DNA of 64,000 bases, taken from positions 752,471-816,470 of the forward strand of contig OX638379.1 of NCBI GenBank assembly GCA_951813605.1. Direction: 5' to 3'. The notes under the pieces were generated by a model. That model worked only from the letters and a program-made list of their open reading frames with translations. It did not search any database and was not told where the DNA came from. Positions 42,219-58,959 of this stretch are shown here, one piece after another. How positions within the stretch are numbered: the stretch's first letter is position 1; each line of letters begins with the position of its first letter. A program made the translations under genes and the position numbers. The stretch is from an uncultured Bryobacterales bacterium (lineage in GTDB: Bacteria; Acidobacteriota; Terriglobia; Bryobacterales; UBA6623).

Positions 42219-44117
42219 ATGCATTATCGCCCTACCCGCCGCGCCTTCATGAAGAGCGCTGCCCTCTCCGCTGCAGCGCTGCATGCCCCATCCGCACGTG
42301 CCGCCTACGGTGCCTCGAGCGACTGGCGCCACTACGGCGGCTCGCTCGGCGCGACCCGGTACTCGGAGCTGGATCAGATCAACCGTTCCAGCGTTTTCGA
42401 GCTTGAGGTGGCGTGGGTGCACGCCACCGGCGATAGCCGAGCGCGGCCCGCTACCAAGATCGAATGCACGCCGATTGTCGTGGACGGTCGGATGTACGTC
42501 ACGACGGCCCAGGTTCAAGTGCGCGCCCTCAACGCGGAGACGGGCGAGATGTTGTGGAATTTCGATCCCTTTGAAGGAATTCAGATGCGACGATCCAAAG
42601 GCGTCAACCGCGGCGTTGCCTATTGGGCCGACGGCAGCGATCGCCGGATCTTCATGTCGGGGTCCGCGCAGGACTACCTCTACTGCCTCAACGCGGACAC
42701 TGGCAAGCTCGTGTCGGAGTTCGCCGATGACGGCATCCTCGACATGAAGAAGGGCTTGGACCGGGAACTTGCCGATTCCGTCCGCTCGTACTACGCCTCT
42801 CCGCCGGTAATCTTCGAGGACATGCTGTTCCTCGGCGGTGGCTCTGGCAGTGAGGGGCCGGCGCCGGCCGCCCCGGGACACATTCGTGCATTTGACGTCC
42901 GCACGGGCAAGCGGCTATGGATTTTTCACACCATCCCGCACCCGGGCGAGTTCGGCTACGAAACGTGGGGCAAGGACAGCTGGAAGACCGCAGGCGGCGC
43001 AAACAACTGGGGCGGTTTGAGCTTGGATCCCGAACGCGGGCTGCTTCTTGTCTCGACCGGGTCGCCGACTTACGATTTCTACGGTGCGGACCGGCCGGGC
43101 AAGAATCTCTTCGGAAACTCAGTCATCGCCCTCGACATTCGAACAGGCGAACGCAAATGGCATTATCAAACGATCCACCACGATCTTTGGGACTACGATC
43201 TGCCCGCGCAGCCCGTGCTTGCTCGGCGCAAGAACAATGGAGAGTGGCAGGACATCGTCGTTCAGATTTCCAAGCAGGCATTCTGGTACATCTTCGATCG
43301 CGAAACGGGCGAGCCTGTGTGGGAAATCGAGGAATTGCCCGTGCCCGGTTCCGATATGGAGGGCGAGCACGTGTATCCGACACAGCCGTTCCCGACCAAG
43401 CCGGCACCCTTCGCGCGCCAGGGATTCGAAAGCGACGAATACATCACAGACATTACGGAGGAGTCGCGAGAGTACATCAAGAGGCGCCTTAAGGACTTGC
43501 GACGGGGGATGCTCTACACGCCGCCTAGCAGAGGCGGAACGGTGTATAACCCCGGCACAGTGGGAGGAACCATCTGGGGCGGAACCAGCCACGACCCAGA
43601 GGCCGGACTGATGTTCATCAACACCAACAACTGGCCGAAGTTCTTCACCTTGATCGACGCGCCCGAAGGGGCCGGCTTCCCCCTTATGCACACCGGCTAT
43701 CCATTCTTCGTTGACCAAGACAAGTACTCTGCGGCGAAACCGCCTTGGGGTGAACTGCTTTGCTTGGACCTGGCAACGGGCGACTACCGTTGGCGGCGCC
43801 CCATTGGCGAATACGCCGAACTCACGGCGAAGGGCATCGAGGGGACGGGCACGTTTAACGTCGGCGGATCGATCGTAACCAAGGGCGGTCTGCTTTTCCT
43901 CGGGGCCACGCAGGACGAGAAGTTCCGTGCGTTCGACACTAGTTCAGGCGAGATCCTTTTCGAGCATCAACTCTCGGCCGGCGGGTACGCGACTCCATGC
44001 ACGTATGCGGTCGCCGGCAAGCAGTATGTGGTCATCGCCGCCGGAGGCGGCGGGCGCGACATCGGCTCAGGAGGCAGGAAGTCCGGTGACGAGTTCGTAG
44101 CCTTCAGCCTGGGCTAG
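42219..44117 (+). CDS. Soluble PQQ-dependent dehydrogenase (quinoprotein, 8-bladed propeller type) with Tat signal
   Basis: N-terminus MHYRPTRRAFMKSAALSAAALHAPSARA. The quinoprotein start block DWRHYGGSLGATRYSELDQINRSSVFELEVAW. W-rich propeller repeats throughout. No heme CxxCH motif. Confidence 0.9.
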   Translation: MHYRPTRRAFMKSAALSAAALHAPSARAAYGASSDWRHYGGSLGATRYSELDQINRSSVFELEVAWVHATGDSRARPATKIECTPIVVDGRMYVTTAQVQVRALNAETGEMLWNFDPFEGIQMRRSKGVNRGVAYWADGSDRRIFMSGSAQDYLYCLNADTGKLVSEFADDGILDMKKGLDRELADSVRSYYASPPVIFEDMLFLGGGSGSEGPAPAAPGHIRAFDVRTGKRLWIFHTIPHPGEFGYETWGKDSWKTAGGANNWGGLSLDPERGLLLVSTGSPTYDFYGADRPGKNLFGNSVIALDIRTGERKWHYQTIHHDLWDYDLPAQPVLARRKNNGEWQDIVVQISKQAFWYIFDRETGEPVWEIEELPVPGSDMEGEHVYPTQPFPTKPAPFARQGFESDEYITDITEESREYIKRRLKDLRRGMLYTPPSRGGTVYNPGTVGGTIWGGTSHDPEAGLMFINTNNWPKFFTLIDAPEGAGFPLMHTGYPFFVDQDKYSAAKPPWGELLCLDLATGDYRWRRPIGEYAELTAKGIEGTGTFNVGGSIVTKGGLLFLGATQDEKFRAFDTSSGEILFEHQLSAGGYATPCTYAVAGKQYVVIAAGGGGRDIGSGGRKSGDEFVAFSLG

Positions 44118-44296
44118 CCCGGTGTGTCCGCTTCTGGGCGGCGAGAGGACGCCATTTGGTTGCAGCGTAAGCGCGCCCTGCACCCCTTGACCTGCTCCCC
44201 ATGCCGACTCCATCCTGCTGGCATGCGGACGCCGCCGGCAACGCATCGACAATCCCGCGCAACGATGAACGGGTGTGACACCAAAGACTAGTCAGG

Positions 44297-45778
44297 TTGG
44301 GAAGGATGTTAGAGACTCGGGAAATTACAAAGCATTTTGGCGGGACCAGAGCTTTGGACCGGGTCAGCTTCGCCGTTCGTCCCGGAGAGGTGCATGCGCT
44401 GATCGGTGAGAACGGGGCAGGCAAATCGACACTGATGAAGATTGTTTCGGGAGCCCTCAGGCCGGACTCCGGCACAATCCACATCGAAGGTTCCGCTATC
44501 CGAATTGAGAATCCCCACCACGCGTTGCAACTGGGTATCTCGATCGTCCATCAGCAGTCGAGTCTGGTCCCCGACCTGACTGTGGCGGAGAACATCTTCC
44601 TGGGACGAATGCCCAAGACCAAGCTAGGTTTGGTCGATTGGAAGACCCTCTACTGTGACGCGGCTGCGCTGCTGAGACGCCTCGAATTCAGTTTGGATGT
44701 CCACCGGCCAGCCGGGGATTTGGACGCGGCCAGCCAGCAAGTCACCGAGATCGCACGCGCTTTATCGGTCTCAGCGCAGGTTCTCATCATGGACGAGCCC
44801 TCCGCCGTCTTGGGATCGAGCGAATTGGACCGATTGTTCAAGATTATTCGCAAGCTGAGAGCCGACGGGAAGGCGATCATTCTTGTCTCGCATCGCTTGC
44901 AAGAGATCTTCCGAATCTCGGATCGGGTGACAGTGCTAAAGGATGGTCGGATTGTCGGAACGTACGCCCTAGACGGCCAGCTGGACCCCACATTTCTCAT
45001 CCGCAAAATGGTGGGCAAGGGATGGGTCGAAAGATCTCTGGGCATACCGGAAGCGACGGGTGGCGAACTGTTGCGCATCGAGGGATTGACTAGAAAAGGT
45101 GCCTTCGAGAACGTAAGCTTCAGACTCAACGCTGGTGAGATTCTTGGTCTGGCCGGACTGGTAGGGGCAGGTCGAACGGACCTTTGCAAGGCTATCTTTG
45201 GTGCCAAGTCACATGACGGCGGCCGGATCTATGTTGAAGGCAGACGCGCCCATATCCGCTCGCCCAGTAATGCCCTAGCGCATGGTGTTGCGTACCTATC
45301 CAAGGATCGCCACAACGAGGGCTTGATCCTGTGCCTGCCGATCGGCACGAACATCACACTGCCAATCCTTCGCCGATTCACTTCCCGGGGTTTTCTCAGA
45401 CTGGGGCACGAGAACCGATTCGTCGACGCAATGATGGACAGGATGAACATACGTTCTACGGGACGCAGGCAGTTGACCGCTGCACTCAGCGGGGGCAACC
45501 AGCAGAAGGCTGCGCTGACAAAGTGGCTCAGCACCCAGGCAAGGATCTTCCTTCTAGACGAGCCGACGGTCGGCATTGATGTCGGGGCCAAGAGCCAGAT
45601 CCACCGCCTTGTCGCCGAACTAGCGAACAACGGAGCAGCGATTCTGCTGGTTTCTTCGGAGATTCCAGAGATACTTTCGCTTTGCAACCGCATCGTCGTG
45701 ATGAGCAAGGGGCGCGTGATGGGGCACCTCCGATCCGAGAAATCCAACGAGGAAGAGATACTGCAACTCGCAACGTAG
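44297..45778 (+). CDS. Sugar-type ABC transporter ATP-binding protein (duplicated ATPase, RbsA/MglA-like)
   Basis: First domain Walker A GENGAGKST. Second domain GLVGAGRTD with signature LSGGNQQK. The 493-aa two-domain architecture is typical of CUT2 sugar importers. The start is TTG 44297 or ATG 44306. Confidence 0.9.
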   Translation: MGRMLETREITKHFGGTRALDRVSFAVRPGEVHALIGENGAGKSTLMKIVSGALRPDSGTIHIEGSAIRIENPHHALQLGISIVHQQSSLVPDLTVAENIFLGRMPKTKLGLVDWKTLYCDAAALLRRLEFSLDVHRPAGDLDAASQQVTEIARALSVSAQVLIMDEPSAVLGSSELDRLFKIIRKLRADGKAIILVSHRLQEIFRISDRVTVLKDGRIVGTYALDGQLDPTFLIRKMVGKGWVERSLGIPEATGGELLRIEGLTRKGAFENVSFRLNAGEILGLAGLVGAGRTDLCKAIFGAKSHDGGRIYVEGRRAHIRSPSNALAHGVAYLSKDRHNEGLILCLPIGTNITLPILRRFTSRGFLRLGHENRFVDAMMDRMNIRSTGRRQLTAALSGGNQQKAALTKWLSTQARIFLLDEPTVGIDVGAKSQIHRLVAELANNGAAILLVSSEIPEILSLCNRIVVMSKGRVMGHLRSEKSNEEEILQLAT

Positions 45779-46060
45779 GAGGACTCCATCCGATGTCAGG
45801 CGAAGCAACCCTTCTCAGCCTTGGCAACGACTCTGGGTCTCCGGACGGATTAGCGTGCGGGTGGCGACTGGCTCCTGGCATATTATTGAAGCCCGCGGTT
45901 GGGGCAGCAAATCACCATTTCGTTTTTTCAGGCTGGGACGCTAGACTTCGCGGCTGCCGGGCAGCACCGCCGCTTTCCTGCAGTGCATGCAGCAAGCCGT
46001 CCTCGAGCATCCGCAAGTCCGGGTAAAGCGCTTGTGACTCTGGCATATCGCCGACCGACG

Positions 46061-48169
46061 ATGTCGGGTTATGATGATTCGCCAAAGATGAATGCAGATA
46101 CGAGCGTTCGGTGCGGGATCGATACAGGCGGAACCTTCACCGATTTCGTGGGCGTGGACGAAGCCTCCGGCGAATTGGTCGCTTGCAAGTGGCCTTCCTC
46201 GCACAGCGACCCGGTAGAAGCGATCGTTGGCGTGGTCAAGGATTCGGGCTTGCCCCCGGAGAGTATCTACTTCTTGATCTTGGGGACTACGGTAGCCACG
46301 AATGCGCTCATTCAGCGCAAGGGAGCGCACGTCATCTACATCACCACGGAGGGCTTTGAGGATGTCCTTTATATCCAGCGCATGAATCGCCGCTACCACT
46401 ACTCCTACGAGTGGACCAAGCCGCTTCCCTTCGTGGAGATGCGTGATTCGCTAGGCGTCAGGGAGCGGATCAACGCCAAGGGCGAGGTCGTGATTCCGTT
46501 GGAGCCGGAAGAGATGGAGCGATTGGCGCAAGAGGTCGAGGCGCGCCTGGAGGGGCACAGCGTCGAAGATTCGTCGCTCGCCGTTTCCTTGCTATTTTCC
46601 TACCTCAATCCTGATCACGAGCTGCGACTGAAAGGATTTCTGCAGTCCCGATTTCCGGGAGTCGCCGTATCAATTTCGCACGAGGTCGCACCGATCTGGC
46701 GGGAGTACGAACGCGGCAGCACCGTCGTAGCCGACGCCTTCGTCAAGCCCCTCCTCCAGCGCTATGTGACCTCGGTTCGTAAGAGCCTGGACAGCCTAGG
46801 ATTGCGTTGTCCGTGGGCAATCATGAAGTCCAATGGCGGCCACGCTACCGCGAAGGTTGCCGAGGGCCAGCCTGTGAACCTTCTTCTGTCCGGCCAGAGC
46901 GGAGGCATCATCGGCGGCAAGTACTTCGGGGAACTCGCCCGGGAAAAGAACTTGATCACTTTGGATATGGGGGGGACGAGTTGTGACGTCGGAGTGGTGC
47001 AGGGAGGCAAACTCTCTTACATCACCAACTACGAAGTGGAATGGGGACTTCCCGTCAGCGCTCCGTTCGTTGACCTTACCGCTATTGGTGCGGGCGGCGG
47101 AAGCATCGCCTGGATCGACAAAGGAGGCTTTCTTCGGGTTGGTCCGCAAAGCGCAGGGGCTACGCCGGGGCCGCTTTGCTACGGTCGCGCCGGAACGCAA
47201 GTGACGGTGACCGATGCCAATCTGGCGCTAGGACGGTTAAACCCGGAGTACTTCCTTGGAGGCAAGATGAAACTGCATCCGAGCGAGGCCCTAGAAGGGT
47301 TGGCCGAACTGGGGCGGCGATTGGATTTGAGTGCGGTAGAGGTGGCTCAAGCTGTGATTGATATGGCCAATGAGAACATGGCTAACGCCATCCGGCTTGT
47401 TTCCATCGAGCGCGGCTTGGATCCGAGGGACTTCAGCGTGGTCGCGTTTGGTGGGGCCGGGCCGCTGCATGCCGGAGGCATCATCGAAAAAATGGGAATG
47501 ACCCGCATCGTGATCCCCCTGTACCCCGGACTCTGTTCTGCCTTTGGCGCGGCGATCGCTGATTTTCAGGTGGACAAGGTGTGGAGCACGCACTATCGCT
47601 CCGACAGCATGCAAGCGGATGTAATTATCGACCAGTTCCGAAAGTTGGAGACGACAGCGCGTGAGGAGTTGCGTGAAGAAGGGTTTAAGGCAGCCCCGGA
47701 GGTGCATCGCTCCATCAGCATGCGTTACGCGGGGCAGAACTATGAGCACGACGTCAGACTGCAGGAGGGCAGTGTGAATTCAGAGAGCCTCGGGCAAGCG
47801 TTCGATGAGTTCCATCGTCTTCACGAGAAACTCTACGGTTATTCGATCAGCGGCGAAGTGATCGAGCTGATCCGCGTCAATGTCACCGCCATAGGACGCA
47901 CCAGGAAGCCTCGGCTCAAAACACCCCCGAGCGACAATGACCCGCAGCCGCGCCAAACTCGGCCCGTGTATTTCGACAAGCATGGATTTGTCCCGTGCCC
48001 CGTGTATTACCGAGATGACTTACCCGGCCGGTATTCGTTCACGGGACCGGCGGTTATCGAGGAGGTCGATTCCACGATCTTGCTTCACCCGGGACATACC
48101 CTGCGTGTGAACCGGCACGGCGTGATCGGCATTGGCATCCGAGGCAAAGGCAATCATGGAGAAGATTGA
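46061..48169 (+). CDS. Hydantoinase A / oxoprolinase / acetone-carboxylase-beta family protein (HyuA-like, ATP-dependent)
   Basis: N-terminal block GIDTGGTFTDFVGVD and a second ATPase block LDMGGTSCDVG. The ORF is open from 45899. ATG 46061 or ATG 46088 is the likely start. Confidence 0.9.
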   Translation: MSGYDDSPKMNADTSVRCGIDTGGTFTDFVGVDEASGELVACKWPSSHSDPVEAIVGVVKDSGLPPESIYFLILGTTVATNALIQRKGAHVIYITTEGFEDVLYIQRMNRRYHYSYEWTKPLPFVEMRDSLGVRERINAKGEVVIPLEPEEMERLAQEVEARLEGHSVEDSSLAVSLLFSYLNPDHELRLKGFLQSRFPGVAVSISHEVAPIWREYERGSTVVADAFVKPLLQRYVTSVRKSLDSLGLRCPWAIMKSNGGHATAKVAEGQPVNLLLSGQSGGIIGGKYFGELAREKNLITLDMGGTSCDVGVVQGGKLSYITNYEVEWGLPVSAPFVDLTAIGAGGGSIAWIDKGGFLRVGPQSAGATPGPLCYGRAGTQVTVTDANLALGRLNPEYFLGGKMKLHPSEALEGLAELGRRLDLSAVEVAQAVIDMANENMANAIRLVSIERGLDPRDFSVVAFGGAGPLHAGGIIEKMGMTRIVIPLYPGLCSAFGAAIADFQVDKVWSTHYRSDSMQADVIIDQFRKLETTAREELREEGFKAAPEVHRSISMRYAGQNYEHDVRLQEGSVNSESLGQAFDEFHRLHEKLYGYSISGEVIELIRVNVTAIGRTRKPRLKTPPSDNDPQPRQTRPVYFDKHGFVPCPVYYRDDLPGRYSFTGPAVIEEVDSTILLHPGHTLRVNRHGVIGIGIRGKGNHGED

Positions 48170-49856
48170 CACCGTCACTTTGAGCGTGATCAACAACGCT
48201 CTGATTAACATCTGCCGGGAAATGGGAACCGCCATGATGCGGACAAGCTATTCACCTATCTTCAACGAAGGGCTGGACTTTTCGTGCGTGATCTTCAACC
48301 GGCGGGGCGACATGATTGGCCAGGCAGAGTTTTGCCCGACGATGTTGGGCTCGGCCCAGTACGCCGTCAATTGGACCATCGAGGAACTTGGCTTGGAGTC
48401 GTTTGAGCCGGGTGATGTCGTCGTGCACAACGATCCCTATCGCGGGCAATGCCACATGCCCGAGCACATGGTCCTCAAGCCCGTCTTTTTTGAGGGTCAG
48501 CTATGGGGCTTCGTAGCCAACATCGCTCACATCGGGGAAATCGGCGGTATGGCTCCTGGTTCCTTCGCAGCCGACGCGACGGAAGTTTATCAAGAAGGGC
48601 TGCGGCTACCTCCGGTCAAGGTCATCAGCCGTGGCGAGTATGTCAAGGACATCTGGAAGATCATCCTCAGCAATCACCGCACTCCCAAGACGAGCTGGGG
48701 AGATCTCCATGCCATGATCGGCTCCCTAGGTATCGCGGAAACACGGCTGCTGGGAATGCTCGAGCGATACGGAGCGCCGTTTCTGACTGCCGCAGCCGAC
48801 CAGCTCTTGGACTACTCGGAGCGCTGGATGCGGGAGGAGATCCGAGATATTCCCAATGGCGAGTACCACGCGAGCGATTGCATGGAGGACGACGGCGTCA
48901 CCGACCAGCCGGTATGGATAAGGCTCAAGCTCGTTGTCAAAGACGATGAGGTGATTGCTGACTGGACCCAATCCGATCCGCAGGCCAAGGGTCCAGTGAA
49001 CGCCACCTTCGTAGTGACCGCAGCCGCCTCCTACAGCGGCCTATTGCACCTTACAAGCAACGATATTCCCCGCAATTCAGGCTGCTACCGACCGATTCGA
49101 GTCGTGACCAAGCCCGGCTCGGTCGTCAATGTGCGCCATCCGGGCCCTTCGGTGGGAGGCAATACGGAGACCCATCCTCACATCCAGAACGTCGTGGTGG
49201 CCGCCCTAAGCCAGGCGATTCCAGAGCGGGCGGCAGCTGCGGAAGGAGCCAGCGGCTGCAATTTCCTGTTCGCCGGCGTCCACCCCGACACCGGTGAGTA
49301 TTACACCAACTACCACATCGACGGAAGCGGCTGGGGCGCCACCGCCTTCCACGATGGAAACTCTGTCATGTGCCCCGAGAACGGGAACTGCCGCAATACC
49401 CCGGTGGAAGTTTTGGAAAGCAAGTTTCCCTGGATGACTCTGGAATACCGGCTCCGCCCCGACTCCGGCGGGGCCGGCAAGTACCGCGGAGGTCTCGGCA
49501 GTTCGCGCATCTTGCGGGTACTGGCACCGGAGATTACCGTGAGCGCGCTGATGGACCGCACCAAGACCAACGCTTGGGGCTTGTTCGGGGGAGGGCAGGG
49601 CGCCCGAGGCGGAATTTTTGTCAAGAAGAAGGGAGACACGCGGTTCCGGACGTTCTCTAAGGCCTTCGGCACAATTTCGGATTCCAAGTTCACGCGGGTT
49701 GTCTTGAAGGAGGGCGACGAGGTGATGATACAGTCGCCCGGTGGCGGAGGCTACGGCTCCCCGTCCGACCGCTTGAGTGACGACGTCGAGCAAGACGTCC
49801 GGCAGGGGTGGGTGTCCGCCGAGGTCGCGCATCACGCGTACGGCTACGAGCCCTAG
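48156..49856 (+). CDS. Hydantoinase B / oxoprolinase family protein (HyuB-like)
   Basis: ATG 48156 overlaps the HyuA-like stop by 14 nt. N-terminal block DTVTLSVINNALINICREMGTAMMRTSYSPIFNEGLDFSCVIF is typical of the Hydantoinase_B family. Confidence 0.9.
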   Translation: MEKIDTVTLSVINNALINICREMGTAMMRTSYSPIFNEGLDFSCVIFNRRGDMIGQAEFCPTMLGSAQYAVNWTIEELGLESFEPGDVVVHNDPYRGQCHMPEHMVLKPVFFEGQLWGFVANIAHIGEIGGMAPGSFAADATEVYQEGLRLPPVKVISRGEYVKDIWKIILSNHRTPKTSWGDLHAMIGSLGIAETRLLGMLERYGAPFLTAAADQLLDYSERWMREEIRDIPNGEYHASDCMEDDGVTDQPVWIRLKLVVKDDEVIADWTQSDPQAKGPVNATFVVTAAASYSGLLHLTSNDIPRNSGCYRPIRVVTKPGSVVNVRHPGPSVGGNTETHPHIQNVVVAALSQAIPERAAAAEGASGCNFLFAGVHPDTGEYYTNYHIDGSGWGATAFHDGNSVMCPENGNCRNTPVEVLESKFPWMTLEYRLRPDSGGAGKYRGGLGSSRILRVLAPEITVSALMDRTKTNAWGLFGGGQGARGGIFVKKKGDTRFRTFSKAFGTISDSKFTRVVLKEGDEVMIQSPGGGGYGSPSDRLSDDVEQDVRQGWVSAEVAHHAYGYEP

Positions 49857-49950
49857 CAAGCCGATAGGATTCTCTGGAGCATTCTGATCGCCAAGCGGCT
49901 TGCATCTTGGATGAGAATGCTGCCTGCTATTGTCCTAGGCAGCAGAACGA

Positions 49951-50142
49951 ATGGGTCACTGGGAAGAGAACACCGCCAAGTGGTACGAGCAGACGATGGT
50001 GTACTGCAACGTTTGCGGGAGGATCATTCCGAAAAAGTTTTGGATCGTGGAGCAGGGCACTCAAAAGCTCGTCTTCTGCAACCCGGATTGCGAGCAGCTG
50101 CATCGCGATTATTGGCTGCCCGCGCAGAACCAGAATGCATGA
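49951..50142 (+). CDS. 63-aa Cys4 metal-binding protein with TRASH-type spacing (C-x2-C-x20-C-x3-C)
   Basis: MGHWEENTAKWYEQTMVYCNVCGRIIPKKFWIVEQGTQKLVFCNPDCEQLHRDYWLPAQNQNA has Cys at positions 19, 22, 43 and 47. By my hand count 49 of 63 codons end in G/C, matching neighbouring genes. Starts 95 nt downstream of hyuB on the same strand. No obvious SD. Confidence 0.6.
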   Translation: MGHWEENTAKWYEQTMVYCNVCGRIIPKKFWIVEQGTQKLVFCNPDCEQLHRDYWLPAQNQNA

Positions 50143-50226
50143 GGCCTCTTAGGCGATGGAAGTCATCGTAGCTCTCATCGCGCGATCAGAGGCAAGAGCC
50201 CCCCTTATCCAAGCTGGAAGGGCTAC

Positions 50227-51255
50227 CTACATCGTCCAGTAGTCGTCAGGCTTATCCATCGCGACAAATTGATCTACGTTCTCTTGGGTGATCTCGTCCA
50301 AGGCGATAGGCTGCTGCTTGGGGACTGTTTCGCCCTTGAAGATCTTTATCATTGAATCCACACTTAGAGAGCCATGCAGGCGCGGCGGATGGAGAATCGT
50401 GTACTTTCCCAAGCCGGCCTTGATCAACTTCAGGCCGCCGTTGTACCCATCCAGCCAAGTGAGGCAAGGTTGATTGGCCTTAAGCATGTCATCCGAAATT
50501 CCGGCTGCTCGTAGCGCCTGGATGCCTCCCACCGCCATTTCCCCGCTGTCAAAGTGAATGCCGTCGAGGTCCGGATGGGCTGTGATGATGTTCTCCATGA
50601 CCCGCTGGCCGCTGGCCCGGGACCAATCACCCGCCTGTCGCACGGCGTCGATGTTCGGATGCTTCGCAAGAACGTCGTCATACCCCGCGTTCCTCTCCAC
50701 CGCCGGGCCGGCTCCCGGGAGTCCCTCCAAGATGGCTATCTTGCGTTCGGGTCCAATCAACTCGATGAGTTTGCTCAGACCCTTCACGGCCCCGTACATG
50801 TGATCTGTCGAAACAAAGGTCTCGTACTTTTCGCTCGAGACCTTGCGGTCGACGATGACCACCGGAATTCCTTCCCTTTCGCATTCGTCCAGGATAGGGT
50901 TTGCCACGTACAGATTCGCCGCCCCGATGATGAGCCCGTCCACCCCCTTGGTCAGCAGGTCCTCTAGGTCTGCGACCTGCTTGGCCGGCGAATCGTTGGC
51001 GTCGGTGACGAGAAGGTCGATATTGTCGTGCTTGTCGACTTCCTCCTCGATGGCTTCCCGCAGAGCGGTGCGCCAGGTGTTGGTCTCCGATGCGTTGCTA
51101 AAACCGATTGTCCACCTTCGGTCCTCGAATTCCGCCTTTTCGCGACTCTCGGTGGGATCGGCCTCCGGCGAACAAGCTCCGAAGGTCATGGCAATGCCGG
51201 CCCCCGCCGCGCGTTCGACGAATTGTCGTCGACTGACTTCCTTGCTTGCTTTCAC
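50227..51255 (-). CDS. Sugar-type ABC transporter substrate-binding protein (PBP type I, RbsB-like), Tat-signal lipoprotein-like
   Basis: GTG 51255 is preceded by GGAGGAG. N-terminus VKASKEVSRRQFVERAAGAGIAMTFGAC (twin-arginine motif plus Cys). The body has the periplasmic sugar-binding fold pattern (WTIGFSNASETNTW...VDGLIIGA...). Confidence 0.85.
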   Translation of the reverse strand: MKASKEVSRRQFVERAAGAGIAMTFGACSPEADPTESREKAEFEDRRWTIGFSNASETNTWRTALREAIEEEVDKHDNIDLLVTDANDSPAKQVADLEDLLTKGVDGLIIGAANLYVANPILDECEREGIPVVIVDRKVSSEKYETFVSTDHMYGAVKGLSKLIELIGPERKIAILEGLPGAGPAVERNAGYDDVLAKHPNIDAVRQAGDWSRASGQRVMENIITAHPDLDGIHFDSGEMAVGGIQALRAAGISDDMLKANQPCLTWLDGYNGGLKLIKAGLGKYTILHPPRLHGSLSVDSMIKIFKGETVPKQQPIALDEITQENVDQFVAMDKPDDYWTM

Positions 51256-51368: not shown

Positions 51369-52388
51369 CTACGCTGCACGCTTCTTGTAGAGAGCGACCG
51401 CGACTAGGATGATAAAACCCTTGGCGATCCCCTGCGTGTAGGGCGACACGTTCAGCAGGTTCAGCAGATTGTTGATCATGGAGATGATCAGCGCACCGAG
51501 CAAGGTGCCCCACAGAGAGCCGACACCCCCGAATAGGCTGGTCCCGCCCAGAACTACCGAAGCGATGGCGTCTAACTCCAGGCCCCGTCCGGCCCACGGA
51601 TCACCCACTGTCACACGGGCGCTGAATATGATGCCGCCAAGCGCAGCCGACACGTTACTGACCATGTAGGTCACGAGCTTTACCCGGTTCACTGGGATGC
51701 CGGAAAGCCGTGCTGCTTCCTCGTTTCCGCCCACGGCGTAAACTTGGCGCCCGTACGGGGTGTAGCGCAGCACTATGCCTCCGAGGAAAAAGGCTGCAAG
51801 CATGATGATCACGGGCACGGGCATGGGCCCGATCGAACCGGCTCCCAGCCATGCATAGGCTCCCTGGATTCCCCCGATCGGCTTTCCGCCGGAGACTGTG
51901 AGGGCTGCCCCGCTGGCGATGGCCATCATCGCCAAGGTAACGATGAACGGAGCCACGCCTCGCCAGATGATGATCCCCGCGTTGAATGCGCCGATGGCGG
52001 CGCCCAACGCCAGTGTTACCAGGATGACGAGCGGCAAGGGATAGCCTGCACCGCCCGCGAAGAGCATGGCGCCGACGACACTGTAGAGGCTGAGGGTCAT
52101 GCCCACGGAAAGGTCGATGCCGGCGGTCAGAATGACGAAGGTCATGCCCACAGTTACGACCCCGAGCATGGAAGTCTGACGCAGAATGTTGAGGACATTC
52201 CGCTCGGACATGAAATTCGGCGACAGCACGACCCCGATCGCGATGATGAGTATGAATCCGATGATGACTCCGGCACTCGGCCCCAGTCTGTCCAAGGTCG
52301 GATCCAAGTATTTGGTTTTGATCCTCGACGGGGACGGCATCCCGTGTGGCGCAGGCTGGCCGACGCCGTTTCCGCTGTCTTCCGTCAT
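51369..52388 (-). CDS. Sugar-type ABC transporter permease (RbsC/AraH-like)
   Basis: Multiple hydrophobic spans and a conserved C-terminal region (GGTSLFGGVGSLWGTLLGALII). ATG 52388 is chosen; the ORF is open to 52508. There is no ATPase gene adjacent on this strand. Confidence 0.85.
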   Translation of the reverse strand: MTEDSGNGVGQPAPHGMPSPSRIKTKYLDPTLDRLGPSAGVIIGFILIIAIGVVLSPNFMSERNVLNILRQTSMLGVVTVGMTFVILTAGIDLSVGMTLSLYSVVGAMLFAGGAGYPLPLVILVTLALGAAIGAFNAGIIIWRGVAPFIVTLAMMAIASGAALTVSGGKPIGGIQGAYAWLGAGSIGPMPVPVIIMLAAFFLGGIVLRYTPYGRQVYAVGGNEEAARLSGIPVNRVKLVTYMVSNVSAALGGIIFSARVTVGDPWAGRGLELDAIASVVLGGTSLFGGVGSLWGTLLGALIISMINNLLNLLNVSPYTQGIAKGFIILVAVALYKKRAA

Positions 52389-52941
52389 CGACCCGGTCAG
52401 TCCCTCTCGGCCATACTTCCCATCGATGCCAGAATCACGTTTCTCCAAAACAAGATCACTCGCTAGAGCATTCTGGCTGGCGGCTTTCCGAACCGTTCCG
52501 GCGCGCAACGGAAACCGGGTTCGGCACCAGAGTCCGTAGCGGGATTTCTCTCCCCGAACGCGGTTTATCGATTCTTCTCGACTGGGGCGGACTATGCATG
52601 CAGGTCAATCGCATCCCTGAATCGGCCGGCCCCCTGGTTCTCCGACGTCAATCAATCCCCAGAGAATCGACAACAACCCTCTTTCCGAAGGCCGTGTCTT
52701 GACAGGCCGCCAGAATTGATCCTTCAGATGTTCAGGGGCAGTGATTGTCCGTAGGCATGGTAGCTCATGGGGACCCCTCCAGAGATTCCGTGTGCTTCCG
52801 CCTAAGGACTAGGTCACGATCACCTTGCGATTAACCTAGACGCGCTGACAATGGCATTGGACGCGTGGGCGGCCACTGGGATCGCAGTGCTAGCTTCCGC
52901 GCCCTGCCTGAGGCTTAGGGAGCAGGCATGATCAACCTTGG

Positions 52942-54681
52942 CTACTTGCTACGGTCAGGCTGTGTTCCAGCGATCTTGCCATCGCGCTCGGCAAGGATCT
53001 TTCTTATTGCATTGGTCGTTTCCGTCGGTCGCACGACGGCTTGGAGGCGCTTGGGGTCGCCTTCGGCACGTTGCCGTTCCACCGCTTCCTTGAATCGTTC
53101 CTGATGATCGGCGAGGTCGAGCGGCGTCTCGCCCTGTTCGTTTTTCCAATCGATCGGAGCGCCCTTCGAATAGAGGTATTCGATGATGTGCGGCGATTGG
53201 CCTGCGGCTGCAATGTGCACGATGGTCTGGCCCTGCCGGGGCAACGTAATCGCCTCGACTGGGTCAGCGATTTTATCGTCCGGGTTATAACGGGCCGATA
53301 CATCGGCCCCCCGCTCGACCAACTCCTTGACCACCGCCAGGTCACCCGCGACTACGGCCACCGACAGCGGAGTGTGACCGTCTTTCCTCAGCAGATTCGG
53401 GTCGGCTCCCCAATCTGTCAGCATCTTGATCAACGCCACGCTGCCGGAGTTTGCAGCGATATGGAGGGCCGACGAGCCCGGGGGCGCTGGATTGATTCTC
53501 ACATCGCCCACGGGTCCGGGAGTCGGAAACACGGTCTGACGGTTTGGATCCGCTCCGCCTTCCAGAAGGCGCCTGACGACTGCGAGCGCTTCGTCCTCGC
53601 TGAACGGCGAGGCCTTGCTTCCCGAATGGTTGAGCGACAGCAGCGCCGGGGCTCGACGATATGCGCCCGAGCCCCCCTTGTCATCGCTTCGAATTGCCCA
53701 AACGACCGCAAGGGCGGCCCCGTGCAACGGTGTGTATCCGGCGGCGTCGGCTGTTGTCACCGACGCGCCGCGGTCGAGCAGAAACCGGGCTGTTTCCAGA
53801 TCCGGCCCGAACACCTGCGAGCTGCCCGAGGAAGCCGGAGCCCCTTGGCCGGGTACGAACTCACCTGCTAGCGGCACCCACTTGTACAGCGAGGCCAGCA
53901 ACGGAGTCGTGCCGTTGGCCGTCGTTTCGTTCACGTCGAGTCCTAATTCGGTCAGCATTCGGACTGACTCAGGATCCCGCCTCTGGACTGCGAAGAAGAG
54001 GGCATTCTGGCCGCCCTGCTTGCTGACGTAGGCTCCATCGTTATTCCAAGGGATACCGGTCTTGCCGAGCGTGAACGTCGTTGGGATGTAAATCGTGTAT
54101 TTCACGTCCCAGGTTTTCGTCGTCGCTCGAACAGCCGCTCCGCGTTCAACCAAGAGCCGCACCGCGGCCGGGTTTCCGGCTGCCCACATCATTGCGGTCT
54201 GACCGAACTTCTTTTCTCGAGCGTTCACGCCCGCGCCGCGATCAAGCAGCAACTTCACCACGTCCAATTGGCCCATGCGCACCGCAGTCATCAGGGGCGT
54301 TTCCCCGCTCTCTCTCGGAACGTTAGGGTCGGCGCCGTTCTCGAGCAGGAGACGCGCGATCCCTTGCGCCCCGTTCTCGATCGCCAGTGACAGAGGACCA
54401 ATGCCATACGCATTGGCCAGGTCGGGGTCGGCCCCAGCTCTCAGCAACAGGCCTGCGACATCCGCATTGTTGCGAACCGCCGCCCAGGCGAGCGCTGTCG
54501 AGCCGTCTGGCCCCCGTGCGTTCACATCCGCCCCGCGGCTTAGCAGCGCAGCCACGGACGCCCGGTTGTCGCTGCGAGCGGCCTCGATAATCGCTCCGCC
54601 GGGGCTCGTGGCCACGAGGCTACTGCTGAGAGCAAGGACCGCGATAGCAGTGAGTTTGGGCGCGCCCCATCTCCGGTTCAC
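52942..54681 (-). CDS. Secreted ankyrin-repeat protein (~580 aa)
   Basis: GTG 54681 lies 4 nt after the stop of the DUF1552 gene and 9 nt after GGAGG. Signal-like KLTAIAVLALSSSLVATSPGGA. Many ANK units, e.g. DGSTALAWAAVRNNADVAGLLLRAGADPD, SGETPLMTAVRMGQLDVVKLLLDRGAGVN and DGHTPLSVAVVAGDLAVVKELVERGADVS. Confidence 0.85.
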   Translation of the reverse strand: MNRRWGAPKLTAIAVLALSSSLVATSPGGAIIEAARSDNRASVAALLSRGADVNARGPDGSTALAWAAVRNNADVAGLLLRAGADPDLANAYGIGPLSLAIENGAQGIARLLLENGADPNVPRESGETPLMTAVRMGQLDVVKLLLDRGAGVNAREKKFGQTAMMWAAGNPAAVRLLVERGAAVRATTKTWDVKYTIYIPTTFTLGKTGIPWNNDGAYVSKQGGQNALFFAVQRRDPESVRMLTELGLDVNETTANGTTPLLASLYKWVPLAGEFVPGQGAPASSGSSQVFGPDLETARFLLDRGASVTTADAAGYTPLHGAALAVVWAIRSDDKGGSGAYRRAPALLSLNHSGSKASPFSEDEALAVVRRLLEGGADPNRQTVFPTPGPVGDVRINPAPPGSSALHIAANSGSVALIKMLTDWGADPNLLRKDGHTPLSVAVVAGDLAVVKELVERGADVSARYNPDDKIADPVEAITLPRQGQTIVHIAAAGQSPHIIEYLYSKGAPIDWKNEQGETPLDLADHQERFKEAVERQRAEGDPKRLQAVVRPTETTNAIRKILAERDGKIAGTQPDRSK

Positions 54682-54685
54682 CGAG

Positions 54686-55984
54686 CTAGACCTCCAATCG
54701 GTTGAGCTTGCCTGTGCTGTCACCGAGCTTCTCGGTGGGCACGCCGACCTTGTCAAGCATCGTGAGGTAGAGGTTGGTCAACGGGGTCGTGTCGCCGGGA
54801 TAGGCAATGTAGCGTCCTCCAGCCACGCGCCCGGCCGCGCCACCCGCCAGGAGTATCGGCAGGTCCCTCTGGCTATGGCTCGTTGGCACGCTGAGGTTGC
54901 TGCCATACATGATCAGTGAATGATCGAGCAGCGTCGAGCCTCCCTCCTTGATCGCGTCGAGCTTGTCCAGGAAGTAAGCGAACAGCTCGGCCTGGTTCAC
55001 ATTAATCTTGGCCAGGGCGTCGAGTTTGGGCTTCTCGAAATTGTGGTGGGATATCTCGTGATGCCCCATCGAAATGTCCAGATGCGGGAAGCTCATCGAA
55101 GTGGCCTCACGGCCGTAGAGGAACGTCCAGACACGAGTCAGGTCCGCCTGCAAGGCCAGCGTCTGCAAATCGAACATGAGCCTGACTCGATCCGGCCAAG
55201 CGTCCGGAATGCCCGGAGGCCGCTCCGTCTCGGGTAGATCCGCGGGCGGCTTCTTCATGGCGACGTCGATCCGGCGCTCGACATCGCGAATTGAATCGAT
55301 GTATTCGTCCAGCTTTTGACGATCATCGTTGCCGAGCTCCGCCTTCAATTCCGAGATCCGCCCGGCGACGCCATCGAGCGAGCTCCTGTCGGCGGCGTCG
55401 CGTGCCTTGGCTGCGACGGGGTCGATGCGGCCGCCCTCGCCGAACAGCCGCTCGAAGACCATGCGGGGATTCTTTTCGAACGGCAAGGGATTCGTGGCGC
55501 TCTTGAAGACAGGTCCGGGGAGATTCCCAGTGTCCTCCGTCGCGAGCTCGAGCGATGCGAACTGGGTTTCACTCCCCAGCGTTCGAGCGGCCACTTGGTC
55601 GACGGAGATCCCTACGTGAACCTTGCCCTTGGTCGGCTCGCAACCGGTCATGAACGACGCCATCGCACGGTCGTGGAAGCCTGGCTTCGAGCGGTCGGGG
55701 TCGGAGGACAGCCCGGTTAGGACGAGAAACTTGTCCCGATGGGCGGCTAGCGGTGCCAACGCCTCGCTGAATTGATAGTCTGCGCCTTCCCCAGCCGGGC
55801 GCCAGCGGTCTTGATCGACGCCCAGAGGAAAGTAAATGAAGCCGAGGCGACGCACCGGCGCGGCCGCGGTGACACTATCGGCCGTCAGCGCCGGAACCAT
55901 GGCGTCCAGCAGTGGCAGCCCCAGCGCCATTCCGGCTCCGCGAAGAAAAGTGCGGCGCGGAAGGTGTTTCTTCGTAACGAACAT
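54686..55984 (-). CDS. DUF1552 (HXXSHH) domain protein with Tat signal
   Basis: ATG 55984 lies 2 nt after the upstream stop and follows GAGGAG. N-terminus MFVTKKHLPRRTFLRGAGMALGLPLLDAMVPA. Contains HEISHH, matching the H-x-x-S-H-H family motif. Confidence 0.9.
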   Translation of the reverse strand: MFVTKKHLPRRTFLRGAGMALGLPLLDAMVPALTADSVTAAAPVRRLGFIYFPLGVDQDRWRPAGEGADYQFSEALAPLAAHRDKFLVLTGLSSDPDRSKPGFHDRAMASFMTGCEPTKGKVHVGISVDQVAARTLGSETQFASLELATEDTGNLPGPVFKSATNPLPFEKNPRMVFERLFGEGGRIDPVAAKARDAADRSSLDGVAGRISELKAELGNDDRQKLDEYIDSIRDVERRIDVAMKKPPADLPETERPPGIPDAWPDRVRLMFDLQTLALQADLTRVWTFLYGREATSMSFPHLDISMGHHEISHHNFEKPKLDALAKINVNQAELFAYFLDKLDAIKEGGSTLLDHSLIMYGSNLSVPTSHSQRDLPILLAGGAAGRVAGGRYIAYPGDTTPLTNLYLTMLDKVGVPTEKLGDSTGKLNRLEV

Positions 55985-55986
55985 CG

Positions 55987-58368
55987 TTAGCTCCTCGAAC
56001 TCCCTCGTGTCTGTCGCAATCGGAACGGCGGGCTCTTCACCACGCCCAGCACCAAGTCGGCAAACCGATAGCCATTGCCTTCGGTGTCTCGCAGAACCTG
56101 CCGAACGGCGGGCAGGTCTCTGGGATCCAGTTCCCGCCCGAGTGCGTAGGTCAGCAAGCGCTCCACCGCGGAGCGCGCGAACCGGTCCGGACGGCTCAAC
56201 AGGAGATTCCTTAGCCCCTCCGGCCCGGAAAACGTCTCGCCGGAAGGCAGCGATCCCGACGGATCGATTGCCTCTCCCTCGTCTTCGGTCCGCCATCGAC
56301 CGATTACATCGAAATTCTCCAGCGCGAACCCCAGTGGATCGATGCGGGCGTGGCAGGAAGCGCAGCCGGGATCGGCCCTGTGCCGCTCCACCTGTTCCCT
56401 CGTCGTGAGCTTGCGACCGTCCGCTGGGCTCTCGTCGAGTGCAGGCACGTCGGCAGGCGGGGGAGGGGGCGGGGAATTCAGCAGATTATCGAGGATCCAC
56501 TTGCCTCTCAGCACTGGCGACGTCCTGGCCGCGTGGGATGTCAGCATCAGGAATCCGCCCTGCCCGAGCAGTCCGCCCCGCTGGGGGTTGCCGGCCAGTG
56601 ACACGCGCCGGAATCCCGGGCCCACTACGCCTTCAATCCCGTAATTCCGCGCCAGTCGCTCGTTCAAATAGGTGTAGTCCGCGCCGAGCAGGTCCAATAC
56701 GCTGCGGTTTTCGCGGATCACGCTGCGTATGAAGAATTGGGATTCCTTCCGAAACGCGGTCATGAGCGATGAATCGAATTCGGGATAGGCTTTCGGGTCC
56801 GGTCGAGACCGACCCAGCCCTCGCAATCCGAGCCACTGCGCTGCAAAGTTGTCCGCCAAGGTTGTCGCGCGTGGATTCTGGAGCATTCGTCGCAGTTGGC
56901 GCTCCAAGGCCGCCGGATCCCTCAATCTTCCGCTACTGGCGATGTCGAGCAACTCGTCATCCGGGATGCTGCTCCACAGGAAAAACGAAAGCCGAGAGGC
57001 CAACTCGAAGTCGGAGACCGGGAGCGGCTTGCCCGGGGCGCTCTCGACGGGATCGAACTCGAGACGGAACAGAAAATCCGGCGCTAGCAAGATCTCTCGC
57101 AATGCGGCTGCGATCGAGGCCTCGAATCCCTGCGCTTTGCGAGCTGCCTCGTAGGTTGCTAGCAGCGGACGCAGGTCCTCGTCTGAGACGTCCCGCCGAA
57201 AGGCCCGTCGCGCCAGCGTGGCAAGAATTCTGGATGCGCACTGGGACTCGTCTGCGGGACCCTTGGGCCGGCAAATGAGAATCCGCCTGCGGCTGGGGGT
57301 TTTACTGACTCCCGTCACGTTGTAGGGGCCAATGATCTCGATTCTGCCCAGAATGGGAGGCCCGGGCAGCCCCTCCATGGCGGCGTGGCCGGCGTTCATG
57401 CCTTCGATCTCGAAGAGCTTCACGCGCTGACCGTCCACGCGAAAATCGATTGTGCGCCGGATCGCCGTACCGAGGAGGTCGAGGGGTCCGCCCAAGGCTT
57501 TCCCACCGGGCCCGCCTACATCCAAAACCGGACCTTCTCGGGCTGCGAACTCGTCGGGAAACGTTACCACGATCTCATGCGGGCCGGCCGTCAGCCGAGT
57601 CCTGGTGCGGAAGAACCGGACTCCTTCCGTCGGCGTCAAGCTCTGCCTCTCGAGAAACGCCCGCAAGTCGTATTCGCCGTCGTAGGGGAAGTGGTGGTTG
57701 ATTCGTGTGCCGCCGCGTGTGCCGAATGGCATGCCTTCTCCCTGCCACGTAGCCTGCGGACCCTTGGCCGGGAAGATTTCAGTGACCGGCGAGGGATCGC
57801 TCACTCCCAGGGCGAGTTGACTAATCCTCCGAGCCAGCTTCAAGTACCGCTCGAGCAACAGGGGAGACATCGAGAGTGCGTCTCCGATATTGTCGAAGCC
57901 CGCAGCTTGACCGTCCGGCGGCAGCTGAGCCGCCAGAGGCAAGTTGATGGCAAGCAGATCGCGTATGGCGTTGCTGTACTCCATGCGATTCAAGCGGCGG
58001 ATAACCTCGCGACCCGCATAGGGCTTTAGTGTCGCTGCGGCATCGAGGTCGGCGATCAGTGCCGCCGAAAAAGACCGCAATTCGGCTTCAGCCGGACGCG
58101 GAGCCCCGGCCGGCGGCATCTCGCCGTCAGCGAGCTTCCGGGCGACTTTCTCCCAAATGTGCGGATGAGCGGAAGGATTGTCCGTGGGAATTTCTTCCAG
58201 CGCCAGGCCTCCCGACCGGATGCTGCTGCTATGACACCCCAGGCAGTTCTGATTGAGAAATGCTTCCCGCTCTGCTGACAGAGCGTAATTCTGTGCCTGC
58301 AACTGCGGGGACAAGCCCAGTAGCAATGCGGCGATGAAGCTGCAAGACGTGCCGCCCCAAGTCGCCAT
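55987..58368 (-). CDS. Cytochrome-c-domain protein of the DUF1587/DUF1592/DUF1595/DUF1588/DUF1585 family (PSCyt3/PSD type)
   Basis: ATG 58368 gives a signal peptide ending PQLQAQ. Heme motif CLGCH. Family blocks RRLNRMEYSNAIRDLLAINLP, LASRLSFFLWSSIPDDELLDIA, FAAQWLGLRGL, TSPVLRGKWILDNLL and CASCHARIDPLGFALENFD. Confidence 0.9.
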   Translation of the reverse strand: MATWGGTSCSFIAALLLGLSPQLQAQNYALSAEREAFLNQNCLGCHSSSIRSGGLALEEIPTDNPSAHPHIWEKVARKLADGEMPPAGAPRPAEAELRSFSAALIADLDAAATLKPYAGREVIRRLNRMEYSNAIRDLLAINLPLAAQLPPDGQAAGFDNIGDALSMSPLLLERYLKLARRISQLALGVSDPSPVTEIFPAKGPQATWQGEGMPFGTRGGTRINHHFPYDGEYDLRAFLERQSLTPTEGVRFFRTRTRLTAGPHEIVVTFPDEFAAREGPVLDVGGPGGKALGGPLDLLGTAIRRTIDFRVDGQRVKLFEIEGMNAGHAAMEGLPGPPILGRIEIIGPYNVTGVSKTPSRRRILICRPKGPADESQCASRILATLARRAFRRDVSDEDLRPLLATYEAARKAQGFEASIAAALREILLAPDFLFRLEFDPVESAPGKPLPVSDFELASRLSFFLWSSIPDDELLDIASSGRLRDPAALERQLRRMLQNPRATTLADNFAAQWLGLRGLGRSRPDPKAYPEFDSSLMTAFRKESQFFIRSVIRENRSVLDLLGADYTYLNERLARNYGIEGVVGPGFRRVSLAGNPQRGGLLGQGGFLMLTSHAARTSPVLRGKWILDNLLNSPPPPPPADVPALDESPADGRKLTTREQVERHRADPGCASCHARIDPLGFALENFDVIGRWRTEDEGEAIDPSGSLPSGETFSGPEGLRNLLLSRPDRFARSAVERLLTYALGRELDPRDLPAVRQVLRDTEGNGYRFADLVLGVVKSPPFRLRQTRGSSRS

Positions 58369-58959
58369 GTTCAAAGTGGGCCGCCGATTTCGCCTGCGAA
58401 AGATCCTCGGCTCGTTGCAGTCTCCAGCCGCCACGGTGATGGGCATTTCCACTCATATCGTACAAGGGGAACGAGACCAAATTGTGCGGTCGATCGAGGA
58501 ATTCAGACAACATTGCGCCTGACGGTTTGAAGTTGGGGGATATCGCTTGCTTGTGTGTATCGGGGTGTCGGGGCGCGGAGGGATCACGGGCGGGTCGCAA
58601 TAGCTTGATAAACCGCCGCGGGCTTGGCAATCATTGCGGCTGTAGGAAAGGTCGCTTCATCGTCCGTGAATTCAGCATCGGGATGGGTCCGGATGCCTGA
58701 AATGCGGGCCAGGAGCATCTTGACTCGCTTGGCGAGCGCAATCAACAAGATCAGCTCTCGACGTTATTTTGGGCCTTGCGTGATTGTGTCCCTATGAATC
58801 CCGCTATTCGCATCAGTACGAAGCAGCCTTCGAAACAAGGTTGTATCTCACTGCAGTCGACGAATTTGAACAGGGGGTGTTGCGGGCAGGACAGGAAACG
58901 ACCGTTATGTTGCTCAAAGGGCGTTCGAGGACGCAGGCTTTGTCGGAGTTCCGCTGGAT

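Follow-up and report, generated by a model that had tools for sequence, protein, structure and literature searches.

A Cys4 zinc-finger-like mini-protein linked to hyuB as a candidate accessory subunit of HyuA/HyuB ATP-dependent hydrolases

Introduction

Does a small cysteine-rich protein encoded immediately after a hyuA-hyuB gene pair belong to the enzyme specified by those genes, and is it a reduced form of the gamma subunit known from acetone carboxylase? These questions are raised by a locus in a 64,000-nucleotide (nt) stretch of DNA from an uncultured Bryobacterales bacterium (GenBank assembly GCA_951813605.1, contig OX638379.1, positions 752,471 to 816,470; this whole stretch is hereafter the window), in which hyuB is followed by a gene for a protein of 63 amino acids (aa) with four cysteines (Cys4), here called the mini-gene and the mini-protein. 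An earlier reading made from the letters alone (the sequence-only reading) had suggested a third, gamma-like zinc-binding component of the enzyme. We regard it as moderately probable, on the strength of genomic linkage and a predicted fold, that the mini-protein serves as an accessory subunit attached to HyuB and holds its zinc for structural purposes. The parts of the locus directly at issue are these:

45899..48169, + strand: hyuA, HyuA-like ATP-binding subunit (domains Hydant_A_N, Hydantoinase_A and Hydant_A_C)
48132..49856, + strand: hyuB, HyuB-like metal-site subunit (Pfam Hydantoinase_B, 593 bits)
49937..49942, + strand: Shine-Dalgarno (SD)-like AGGCAG, 8 nt 5' of the mini-gene ATG, at a position aligned in relatives
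49951..50142, + strand: mini-gene, 63-aa Cys4 TRASH/L24e-like zinc-finger protein, proposed HyuB-bound accessory subunit

The mini-gene and its coding evidence

The translation of the mini-gene is MGHWEENTAKWYEQTMVYCNVCGRIIPKKFWIVEQGTQKLVFCNPDCEQLHRDYWLPAQNQNA*, in which cysteines at positions 19, 22, 43 and 47 form the arrangement C-x2-C-x20-C-x3-C. Its ATG lies 94-95 nt past the end of hyuB (49856) on the same strand, and the GC content by codon position is 0.51/0.35/0.78 for the mini-gene open reading frame (ORF), compared with 0.60/0.46/0.75 for hyuB. Translation and composition thus confirm what the sequence-only reading had reported: the Cys spacing, the adjacency to hyuB on the same strand, the 95-nt distance and the gene-like third codon positions (third-position GC, GC3, 0.78 vs 0.75). 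Across all six-frame ORFs of the whole window (98,062 aa), the pattern C-x2-C-x19-22-C-x3-C is matched once, by the mini-ORF.

A search of 5.8 billion proteins returned seven homologue clusters at 68-89% identity, every one exactly 63 aa long. Among Bryobacterales/Terriglobia relatives, for pairs with unsaturated synonymous divergence (dS), the pairwise ratio of nonsynonymous to synonymous substitution (dN/dS) is 0.08-0.21 for the mini-gene. The SD-like site is kept 8-9 nt 5' of the ATG among aligned relatives despite a variable spacer: the hexamer reads AGGGAG in three relatives (L011, L036 and L001; L numbers are our labels for loci), AAGGAG in L008 and AGGCAG in the window, while the distance between hyuB and the mini-gene changes from 94 nt in the window to 13 nt in L001 and to a 4-nt overlap in L007. 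Because dN/dS is 0.08-0.21, GC3 is 0.78 and the SD-like site is conserved, the mini-ORF is, judged by its sequence, a real gene under purifying selection.

The spacer (49857-49950) contains two hairpins, the second with an 8-9 bp stem that runs into the SD-like site. We considered this spacer as a regulatory RNA and rejected it, since its folding energy is ordinary (z = -0.18) and it is absent or replaced in relatives. A promoter and terminator scan of positions 44000-50400 found nothing exceeding shuffled expectation.

Linkage of the mini-gene to hyuB

In all 11 family members whose genes were looked up (89% to 26% identity), the mini-gene lies directly after hyuB, and the hyuB stop and mini-gene start codons frequently overlap. 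The flanks of these 11 genes differ, and include a sugar-type ATP-binding cassette (ABC) transporter in Bryobacterales as well as molybdenum hydroxylases, amidases, MR_MLE racemases, a dehydratase and a cupin. To extend this comparison, 80 loci fetched by HyuB alignment alone (the best 80 of at least 600 matches) were scanned by hidden Markov models (HMMs) for HyuA, HyuB and the mini-protein, and 91 HyuB sequences were placed in a neighbor-joining tree without support values. All mini-associated HyuBs lie within one clade of this tree, ranging over Acidobacteriota, Chloroflexota/Thermomicrobiales, Actinomycetota, Poribacteria, Thermodesulfobacteriota and Alphaproteobacteria. The mini-gene is present in 34 of the 42 assessable loci inside the clade and in 0 of the 36 outside it, distributed as follows:

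In clade, mini-gene present: 34 loci (30 with the gene after hyuB; 4 with it before a hyuA-hyuB fusion ORF: L039, L041, L045, L059)
In clade, divergent small Cys4 ORF after hyuB: 3 loci (L052 Mesorhizobium comanense, L053, L078 Shinella sp.)
In clade, mini-gene absent: 5 loci (L028, L033, L054, L058, L060)
In clade, cut by contig or locus end: 2 loci (not counted as assessable)
Outside clade, HyuB 35-42% identical to that of the window: 36 loci, 0 with mini-gene

The co-occurrence with hyuB homologues that the sequence-only reading proposed as a check is thus seen across the clade and not among the loci outside it. Family members are named 'hypothetical protein' or, wrongly, 'ribosomal protein L24E' in their sources.

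The covalent arrangements found in some lineages point to HyuB itself. A single ORF encodes HyuB, a linker of 46-54 aa and the mini domain in three loci (L030, L034 and L042); the L030 fusion is 673 aa long, with Hydantoinase_B at residues 3-534. The same fusion occurs in at least eight metagenomic protein fragments, and one further protein (P0078) carries the mini domain at the N-terminus of HyuB. In L026, L050 and L067, which have no hyuA next to hyuB, the mini-gene likewise comes after hyuB. As far as gene fusion and gene order can identify a partner, that of the mini-protein is likely HyuB.

The divergent small Cys4 ORFs (L052:~5750-5890, L078:~5750-5890, L053:5689-5898 and L103:8720-8911; sequence MKFSLNGLYIESYTKCANCGVLIYE...IYCSEECVDWK...) match the family HMM at E-values of 0.014-0.07 only, and a second-generation HMM did not recruit them; we treat these Shinella/Mesorhizobium ORFs as possible divergent relatives. 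Their carriers include the cultured Mesorhizobium comanense, Shinella sp. SUS2 and Shinella oryzae. On the Shinella oryzae plasmid the stretch has no listed feature, but the PLSDB gene table is incomplete (2 features for a 1.9-Mb record).

Other arrangements of the trio were also observed. hyuA and hyuB form a single ORF in L039, L041, L045 and L059, where the mini-gene lies directly upstream of it, and also in L028, L033, L044, L055 and L098; these loci are mostly actinobacterial. In one locus (L016:801-4205), HyuA carries an N-terminal class-III aminotransferase domain in a fusion of 1134 aa; hyuB and a mini-gene come next, their stop and start codons overlapping.

Family, zinc site and predicted fold

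An exhaustive profile search of 1.84 billion cluster representatives gave a family of 172 at E<=1e-3, of which 48 reach E<=1e-10; almost all members are 60-90 aa long. The consensus of a 98-member alignment is G-x-W-x6-W-x-E-x5-C-x-L-C-G-x2-I-P-x-R-x-W ... F-C-x-P-x-C-E-x-L-Y-x2-Y-W-L-P-R-x-G, in which C19 and G23 are invariant and W4, C22, W31 and C43 nearly invariant. The mini-protein of the window exceeds no Pfam or NCBIfam cut-off: it scores 13.9 bits on Arc_trans_TRASH (cut-off 27), 14.0 on zf-FCS (22.4) and 14.0 on DUF7576 (27). Weak matches recur across the 98 members, to DUF7576 (54/98), TRASH_HVO_1752_C (40/98), ATPase-cat_bd (10/98) and also zf-FCS, L24e and Arc_trans_TRASH, with a best E-value of 3e-5; one fused fragment (P0048) scores 28.0 bits on TRASH_HVO_1752_C, above the cut-off of 27. 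The profile comparison proposed in the sequence-only reading thus gave weak TRASH-clan matches across the family, with the window protein below every cut-off.

Compared with all chains of the PDB, the family profile gave chance-level matches alone (S26e and desulforedoxin, E 0.55-0.68). A model built with AlphaFold2 from the family alignment (mean predicted local distance difference test score, pLDDT, 86.4) has strands at residues 3-6, 29-35 and 38-42 and a helix at 45-61. Its top Foldseek matches in the PDB, none of them significant (best E-value 0.18), are L24e proteins of archaea and eukaryotes (9qf4_BV, 6skf_BY) and the TRASH domain of ZMYM5 (2das). Judged by the motif and by a predicted fold that comes closest to the TRASH/L24e type, the TRASH label is therefore reasonable, while the family is distinct and unnamed. 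It resembles TRASH, zf-FCS and L24e domains in Cys motif and spacing, in the best matches of its predicted fold and in the weak HMM matches of many members, but differs from them in having its own N-terminal G-x-W-x6-W motif and a C-terminal Y-W-L-P-R-Y-G helix. It also differs in its dedication to a HyuB context; in the literature searched, we came across no TRASH family with such a dedication.

The metal site itself is not uniformly retained. The fourth ligand is His in six loci (L035, L038, L039, L041, L044, L098) and Val in four (L040, L046-L048), and in two loci of Chloroflexota/Thermomicrobiales (L023:1967-2080 and L024:5716-5913) three of the four cysteines are lost (FCATSG...IFATPQDLELY), although these two genes lie directly after hyuBs whose products are 69-71% identical to that of the window. 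Site-variant and site-less mini-proteins alike retain the tryptophans and the position beside hyuB. Because the site degenerates in some lineages while the protein, its tryptophans and its position stay, the pattern of conservation speaks more for a protein-binding module with a structural zinc than for a zinc that acts in catalysis or metal transfer.

Proposed role of the mini-protein

We propose that the mini-protein consists of a TRASH/L24e-like zinc finger of the treble-clef type and a helix at its C-terminal end, with the four cysteines holding a structural zinc. It would bind the HyuB of the neighboring HyuA/HyuB ATP-dependent hydrolase as a stoichiometric accessory subunit, through a contact surface made up of W4, W31 and the aromatic C-terminal Y-W-L-P. 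Its role would be structural, stabilizing either HyuB or the HyuA-HyuB assembly, a role also suggested for gamma in the acetone and acetophenone carboxylases (PMC5543143, PMC5214803). We infer the physical binding, the zinc occupancy and the structural role.

Several points weigh against this proposal. The support for a complex is genomic or predicted throughout, and adjacency and fusion are also compatible with a dedicated chaperone or regulator of HyuB. Characterized members of the family, caprolactamase CapAB among them, work with two subunits (PMC8453981), so a third subunit is not generally needed. In addition, five loci inside the clade have no mini-gene, the survey samples only the best-matching HyuBs, the tree that defines the clade carries no support values, and the Foldseek E-values fall short of significance, as expected for so small a domain.

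A different function for the same metal site has to be considered next. The function originally proposed for TRASH domains was the sensing and trafficking of metals, and a TRASH-type Cys4 site could bind metal transiently and either deliver it to the Asp/His site of HyuB or report its availability. Besides that original proposal, the metallochaperone or metal sensor is favored by the weak matches to ATPase-cat_bd, a metal-binding domain of cation ATPases, in 10 of the 98 members, by the conserved metal site of HyuB, and by a dedicated linkage to HyuB that fits a chaperone as well as a subunit. We nevertheless consider it unlikely: the mini-proteins with a Cys-to-Val change and those without a site remain beside hyuB, conservation of the tryptophans equals or exceeds that of the fourth ligand, and a permanent fusion to HyuB through a linker of about 46-54 aa is unusual for a transfer chaperone, though possible. 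A variant in which the mini-protein, rather than being a passive clamp, is a metallochaperone or a metal- or redox-responsive switch for loading or gating the catalytic metal site in HyuB is in our estimate improbable to the same degree; if it were true, the clade would comprise regulated three-component ATP-dependent ring-opening enzymes whose small subunit had an origin independent of the carboxylase gamma.

Comparison with the carboxylase gamma subunit

An accessory subunit with a structural zinc would resemble the gamma subunit of the related carboxylases, and the question is whether the two are homologous. In acetone carboxylase, gamma (AcxC) is bound mostly to the HyuB-like subunit, has a Cys4 zinc regarded as non-catalytic, is described as Yippee-like and touches other subunits with its C-terminal helix (PMC5543143); the gamma of acetophenone carboxylase (Apc) is likewise a small subunit with such a zinc, bound mostly to the HyuB-like subunit (PMC5214803). 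The acx genes are ordered beta (HyuA-like), alpha (HyuB-like), gamma, and on the pCMU01 plasmid the annotated acxC adjoins a hydantoinase B-family gene. This gene order and the zinc-binding cysteines of gamma had been given correctly in the sequence-only reading (pCMU01 acx genes, PMC5543143). The likeness to the gammas of both enzymes (PF08882; 5M45/5SVB chain C and 5L9W chain C) is that of a small Cys4 protein encoded directly after a HyuB-like gene. For Acx it would extend to the binding partner, in the case of gamma mainly the HyuB-like subunit.

These parallels make it tempting to see in the mini-protein a true but extremely reduced gamma homologue that has kept no more than the C-terminal zinc knuckle and helix. 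The position of its gene after a HyuB-like gene is the same as that of acxC, hhalign pairs mini-protein residues 8-54 with AcxC 113-157 (W-x7-C-x2-CG and F-x-PD-x3-Y; pairwise P 0.0025), and the C-terminal helix of gamma is the part that contacts other subunits (PMC5543143). However, the mini-protein has no PF08882 match at E<=1, while as a positive control AcxC of pCMU01 scores 189.5 bits on this model. Of the 67 families matched by the 98 members, PF08882 is not one of the 25 with the most matching members, which does not exclude PF08882 matches of other members. The ligand geometry differs as well: in the mini-protein the two ligand pairs are 20 residues apart and the second is C-x3-C, whereas gamma has C-x-C...x47...C-x2-C with pairs about 47-50 residues apart (Cys74/76/124/127 in Acx, PMC5543143; Cys22/25/75/78 in Apc, PMC5214803). 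The gammas are 168 aa (Acx) and 129 aa (Apc) long, compared with 63 aa, and their reported Yippee-like fold contrasts with the L24e/TRASH treble clef predicted here. None of the gamma chains 5m45_C, 5svb_C and 5l9w_C is among the best 50 Foldseek matches of the mini-protein model.

The hhalign probability between the mini-protein family and AcxC is 8.7-11.8%, with a score of 23.1, and shuffles of the AcxC columns in which the knuckle (YCPECG) was retained give a mean of 22.9, with 56 of 150 reaching the observed score. We therefore rejected remote homology to AcxC. Because controls that keep only the knuckle reproduce the score, the similarity between the two families is, by this comparison, that of a generic zinc knuckle alone. 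We accordingly give the reduced-gamma explanation a slim chance, and the 'minimal gamma-like subunit' of the sequence-only reading is not supported as a statement of ancestry. Its broader idea of a third component fared better, being supported by the adjacency to hyuB, the overlapping stop and start codons, the fusions and the clade-wide co-occurrence. Plausibly, by analogy, the mini-protein works like gamma without detectable homology to it; such a gamma-like role would have been reached independently, because homology to gamma is not demonstrable.

Remaining alternatives

The mini-protein might instead be a small nucleic-acid-binding zinc finger, either a transcription factor or an RNA binder, that regulates the hyu operon. 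The best structural matches are to L24e, an RNA-binding ribosomal protein; TRASH domains occur in archaeal transcription regulators, and weak matches to Pfam Arc_trans_TRASH were found; some members, such as P0008, have basic C-terminal tails. Against this, the protein is covalently fused to an enzyme subunit in several lineages and translationally coupled to hyuB, it has no helix-turn-helix or other DNA-binding module, and the window protein is acidic to neutral, not basic. We see very little chance that this explanation is correct. That the mini-gene is a chance ORF or a mis-called gene without a product, as its uninformative source names and the weak SD-like site of the window itself (AGGCAG) might suggest, is excluded as far as sequence can do so by the low dN/dS, by motifs and length conserved across phyla down to about 26% identity, and by the in-frame fusions to HyuB.

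Implications of a third component

An accessory subunit bound to HyuB would have consequences for how the family is viewed. The hydantoinase/hydrolase ('Hyd') branch is stated to have no gamma orthologues (PMC5214803), and a large HyuB clade with its own small zinc-finger partner of another fold type contrasts with that picture. We found no described small zinc partner of hydantoinases in the literature searched. Genomic linkage suggests that this HyuB branch probably has an unrecognized third subunit, and what is new is the apparent three-component architecture achieved within the HyuA/HyuB family by a different small zinc protein. If the partner does bind HyuB, attempts to express these enzymes heterologously for lactam or hydantoin biocatalysis may fall short or fail when the overlooked gene for a product of 60-80 aa is left out, annotation pipelines would gain a marker for a HyuB subfamily, and the role of the carboxylase gamma could be approached through a smaller independent analogue that offers natural Cys-less variants and fusions.

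The HyuA/HyuB enzyme

The HyuA and HyuB domains of the window all exceed their Pfam cut-offs. The listed hyuA start is a TTG at 45899, but since the HMM match begins at 46100, the true start is probably ATG 46061; that of hyuB is probably ATG 48156. On the NCBIfam caprolactamase equivalogs NF050156/NF050157, HyuA (alpha) scores 515 bits and HyuB (beta) 336 bits, far below the cut-off of 1000, and therefore a substrate is not assignable from these models. In an alignment of 10 HyuBs, D49, H108 and H133 do not vary, and E111 hardly does. The spacing D49...H108-x2-E111...H133 would correspond to the metal site of CapB, described as D...H-x2-D-x21-H (PMC8453981). The window pair thus resembles CapAB, HyuAB and OplAB in its full HyuA and HyuB domain sets and conserved metal-ligand pattern, but differs in that those enzymes are described as alpha-beta only (PMC8453981), whereas the HyuB of the window belongs to the mini-carrying clade.

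Two sets of neighbors may bear on the substrate. In a close relative (L007:935-2561), a creatininase-family gene and a PIG-L deacetylase-family gene precede the cassette. The N-methylhydantoinase of creatinine catabolism is a HyuAB enzyme, and the creatininase neighbor is a possible lead to the substrate. In other phyla (L012, L107/L108, L014, L018, L105), the trio is accompanied by xanthine-dehydrogenase-type molybdenum hydroxylases, amidases, SnoaL-like proteins and MR_MLE racemases, recurrent neighbors that may point to the catabolism of N-heterocycles or lactams.

Surroundings of the trio in the window

The genes immediately around hyuA-hyuB-mini encode a transporter:

44297..45778, + strand: ABC transporter ATPase with two ABC domains (Pfam ABC_tran, 172.6 bits, two stretches); first gene of a conserved cassette, also 5' of hyuA in L001, L007 and L011
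50227..51255, - strand: periplasmic solute-binding protein, convergent with the mini-gene (Pfam Peripla_BP_4, 159.9 bits)
51369..52508, - strand: ABC transporter permease (Pfam BPD_transp_2, 124.8 bits)

A sugar-type (CUT2-like) ABC transporter is thus split around the trio: its ATPase gene precedes the trio on the + strand, and the genes for its binding protein and permease lie on the - strand and point towards the trio. This split cassette, including the solute-binding gene at the equivalent position, is retained in L001, L007, L008 and L011, while the outer flanks vary; the arrangement hints at uptake of the enzyme's substrate. As listed, the permease ORF probably extends too far in the 5' direction, relatives being 308-343 aa.

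Farther out, a 374-aa ORF at 59984-61108 (-) has no Pfam match at E<=1e-5. Just 5' of the ABC ATPase lies a gene for a pyrroloquinoline quinone (PQQ)-dependent alcohol/glucose dehydrogenase (42219-44117, +; 611 bits) with a weak N-terminus resembling a twin-arginine translocation (Tat) signal. On the other side, positions 52942-58452 (-) encode a 604-aa ankyrin-repeat protein, a DUF1552 (HXXSHH) protein and a DUF1592/1588/1587/1585/1595 (PSD/PSCyt) protein. The ORFs of the DUF1552 and DUF1592-type proteins overlap by about 300 nt as listed, and one start is probably mis-set. These families are of Planctomycetes type and consistent with the Bryobacterales assignment of the closest relatives.
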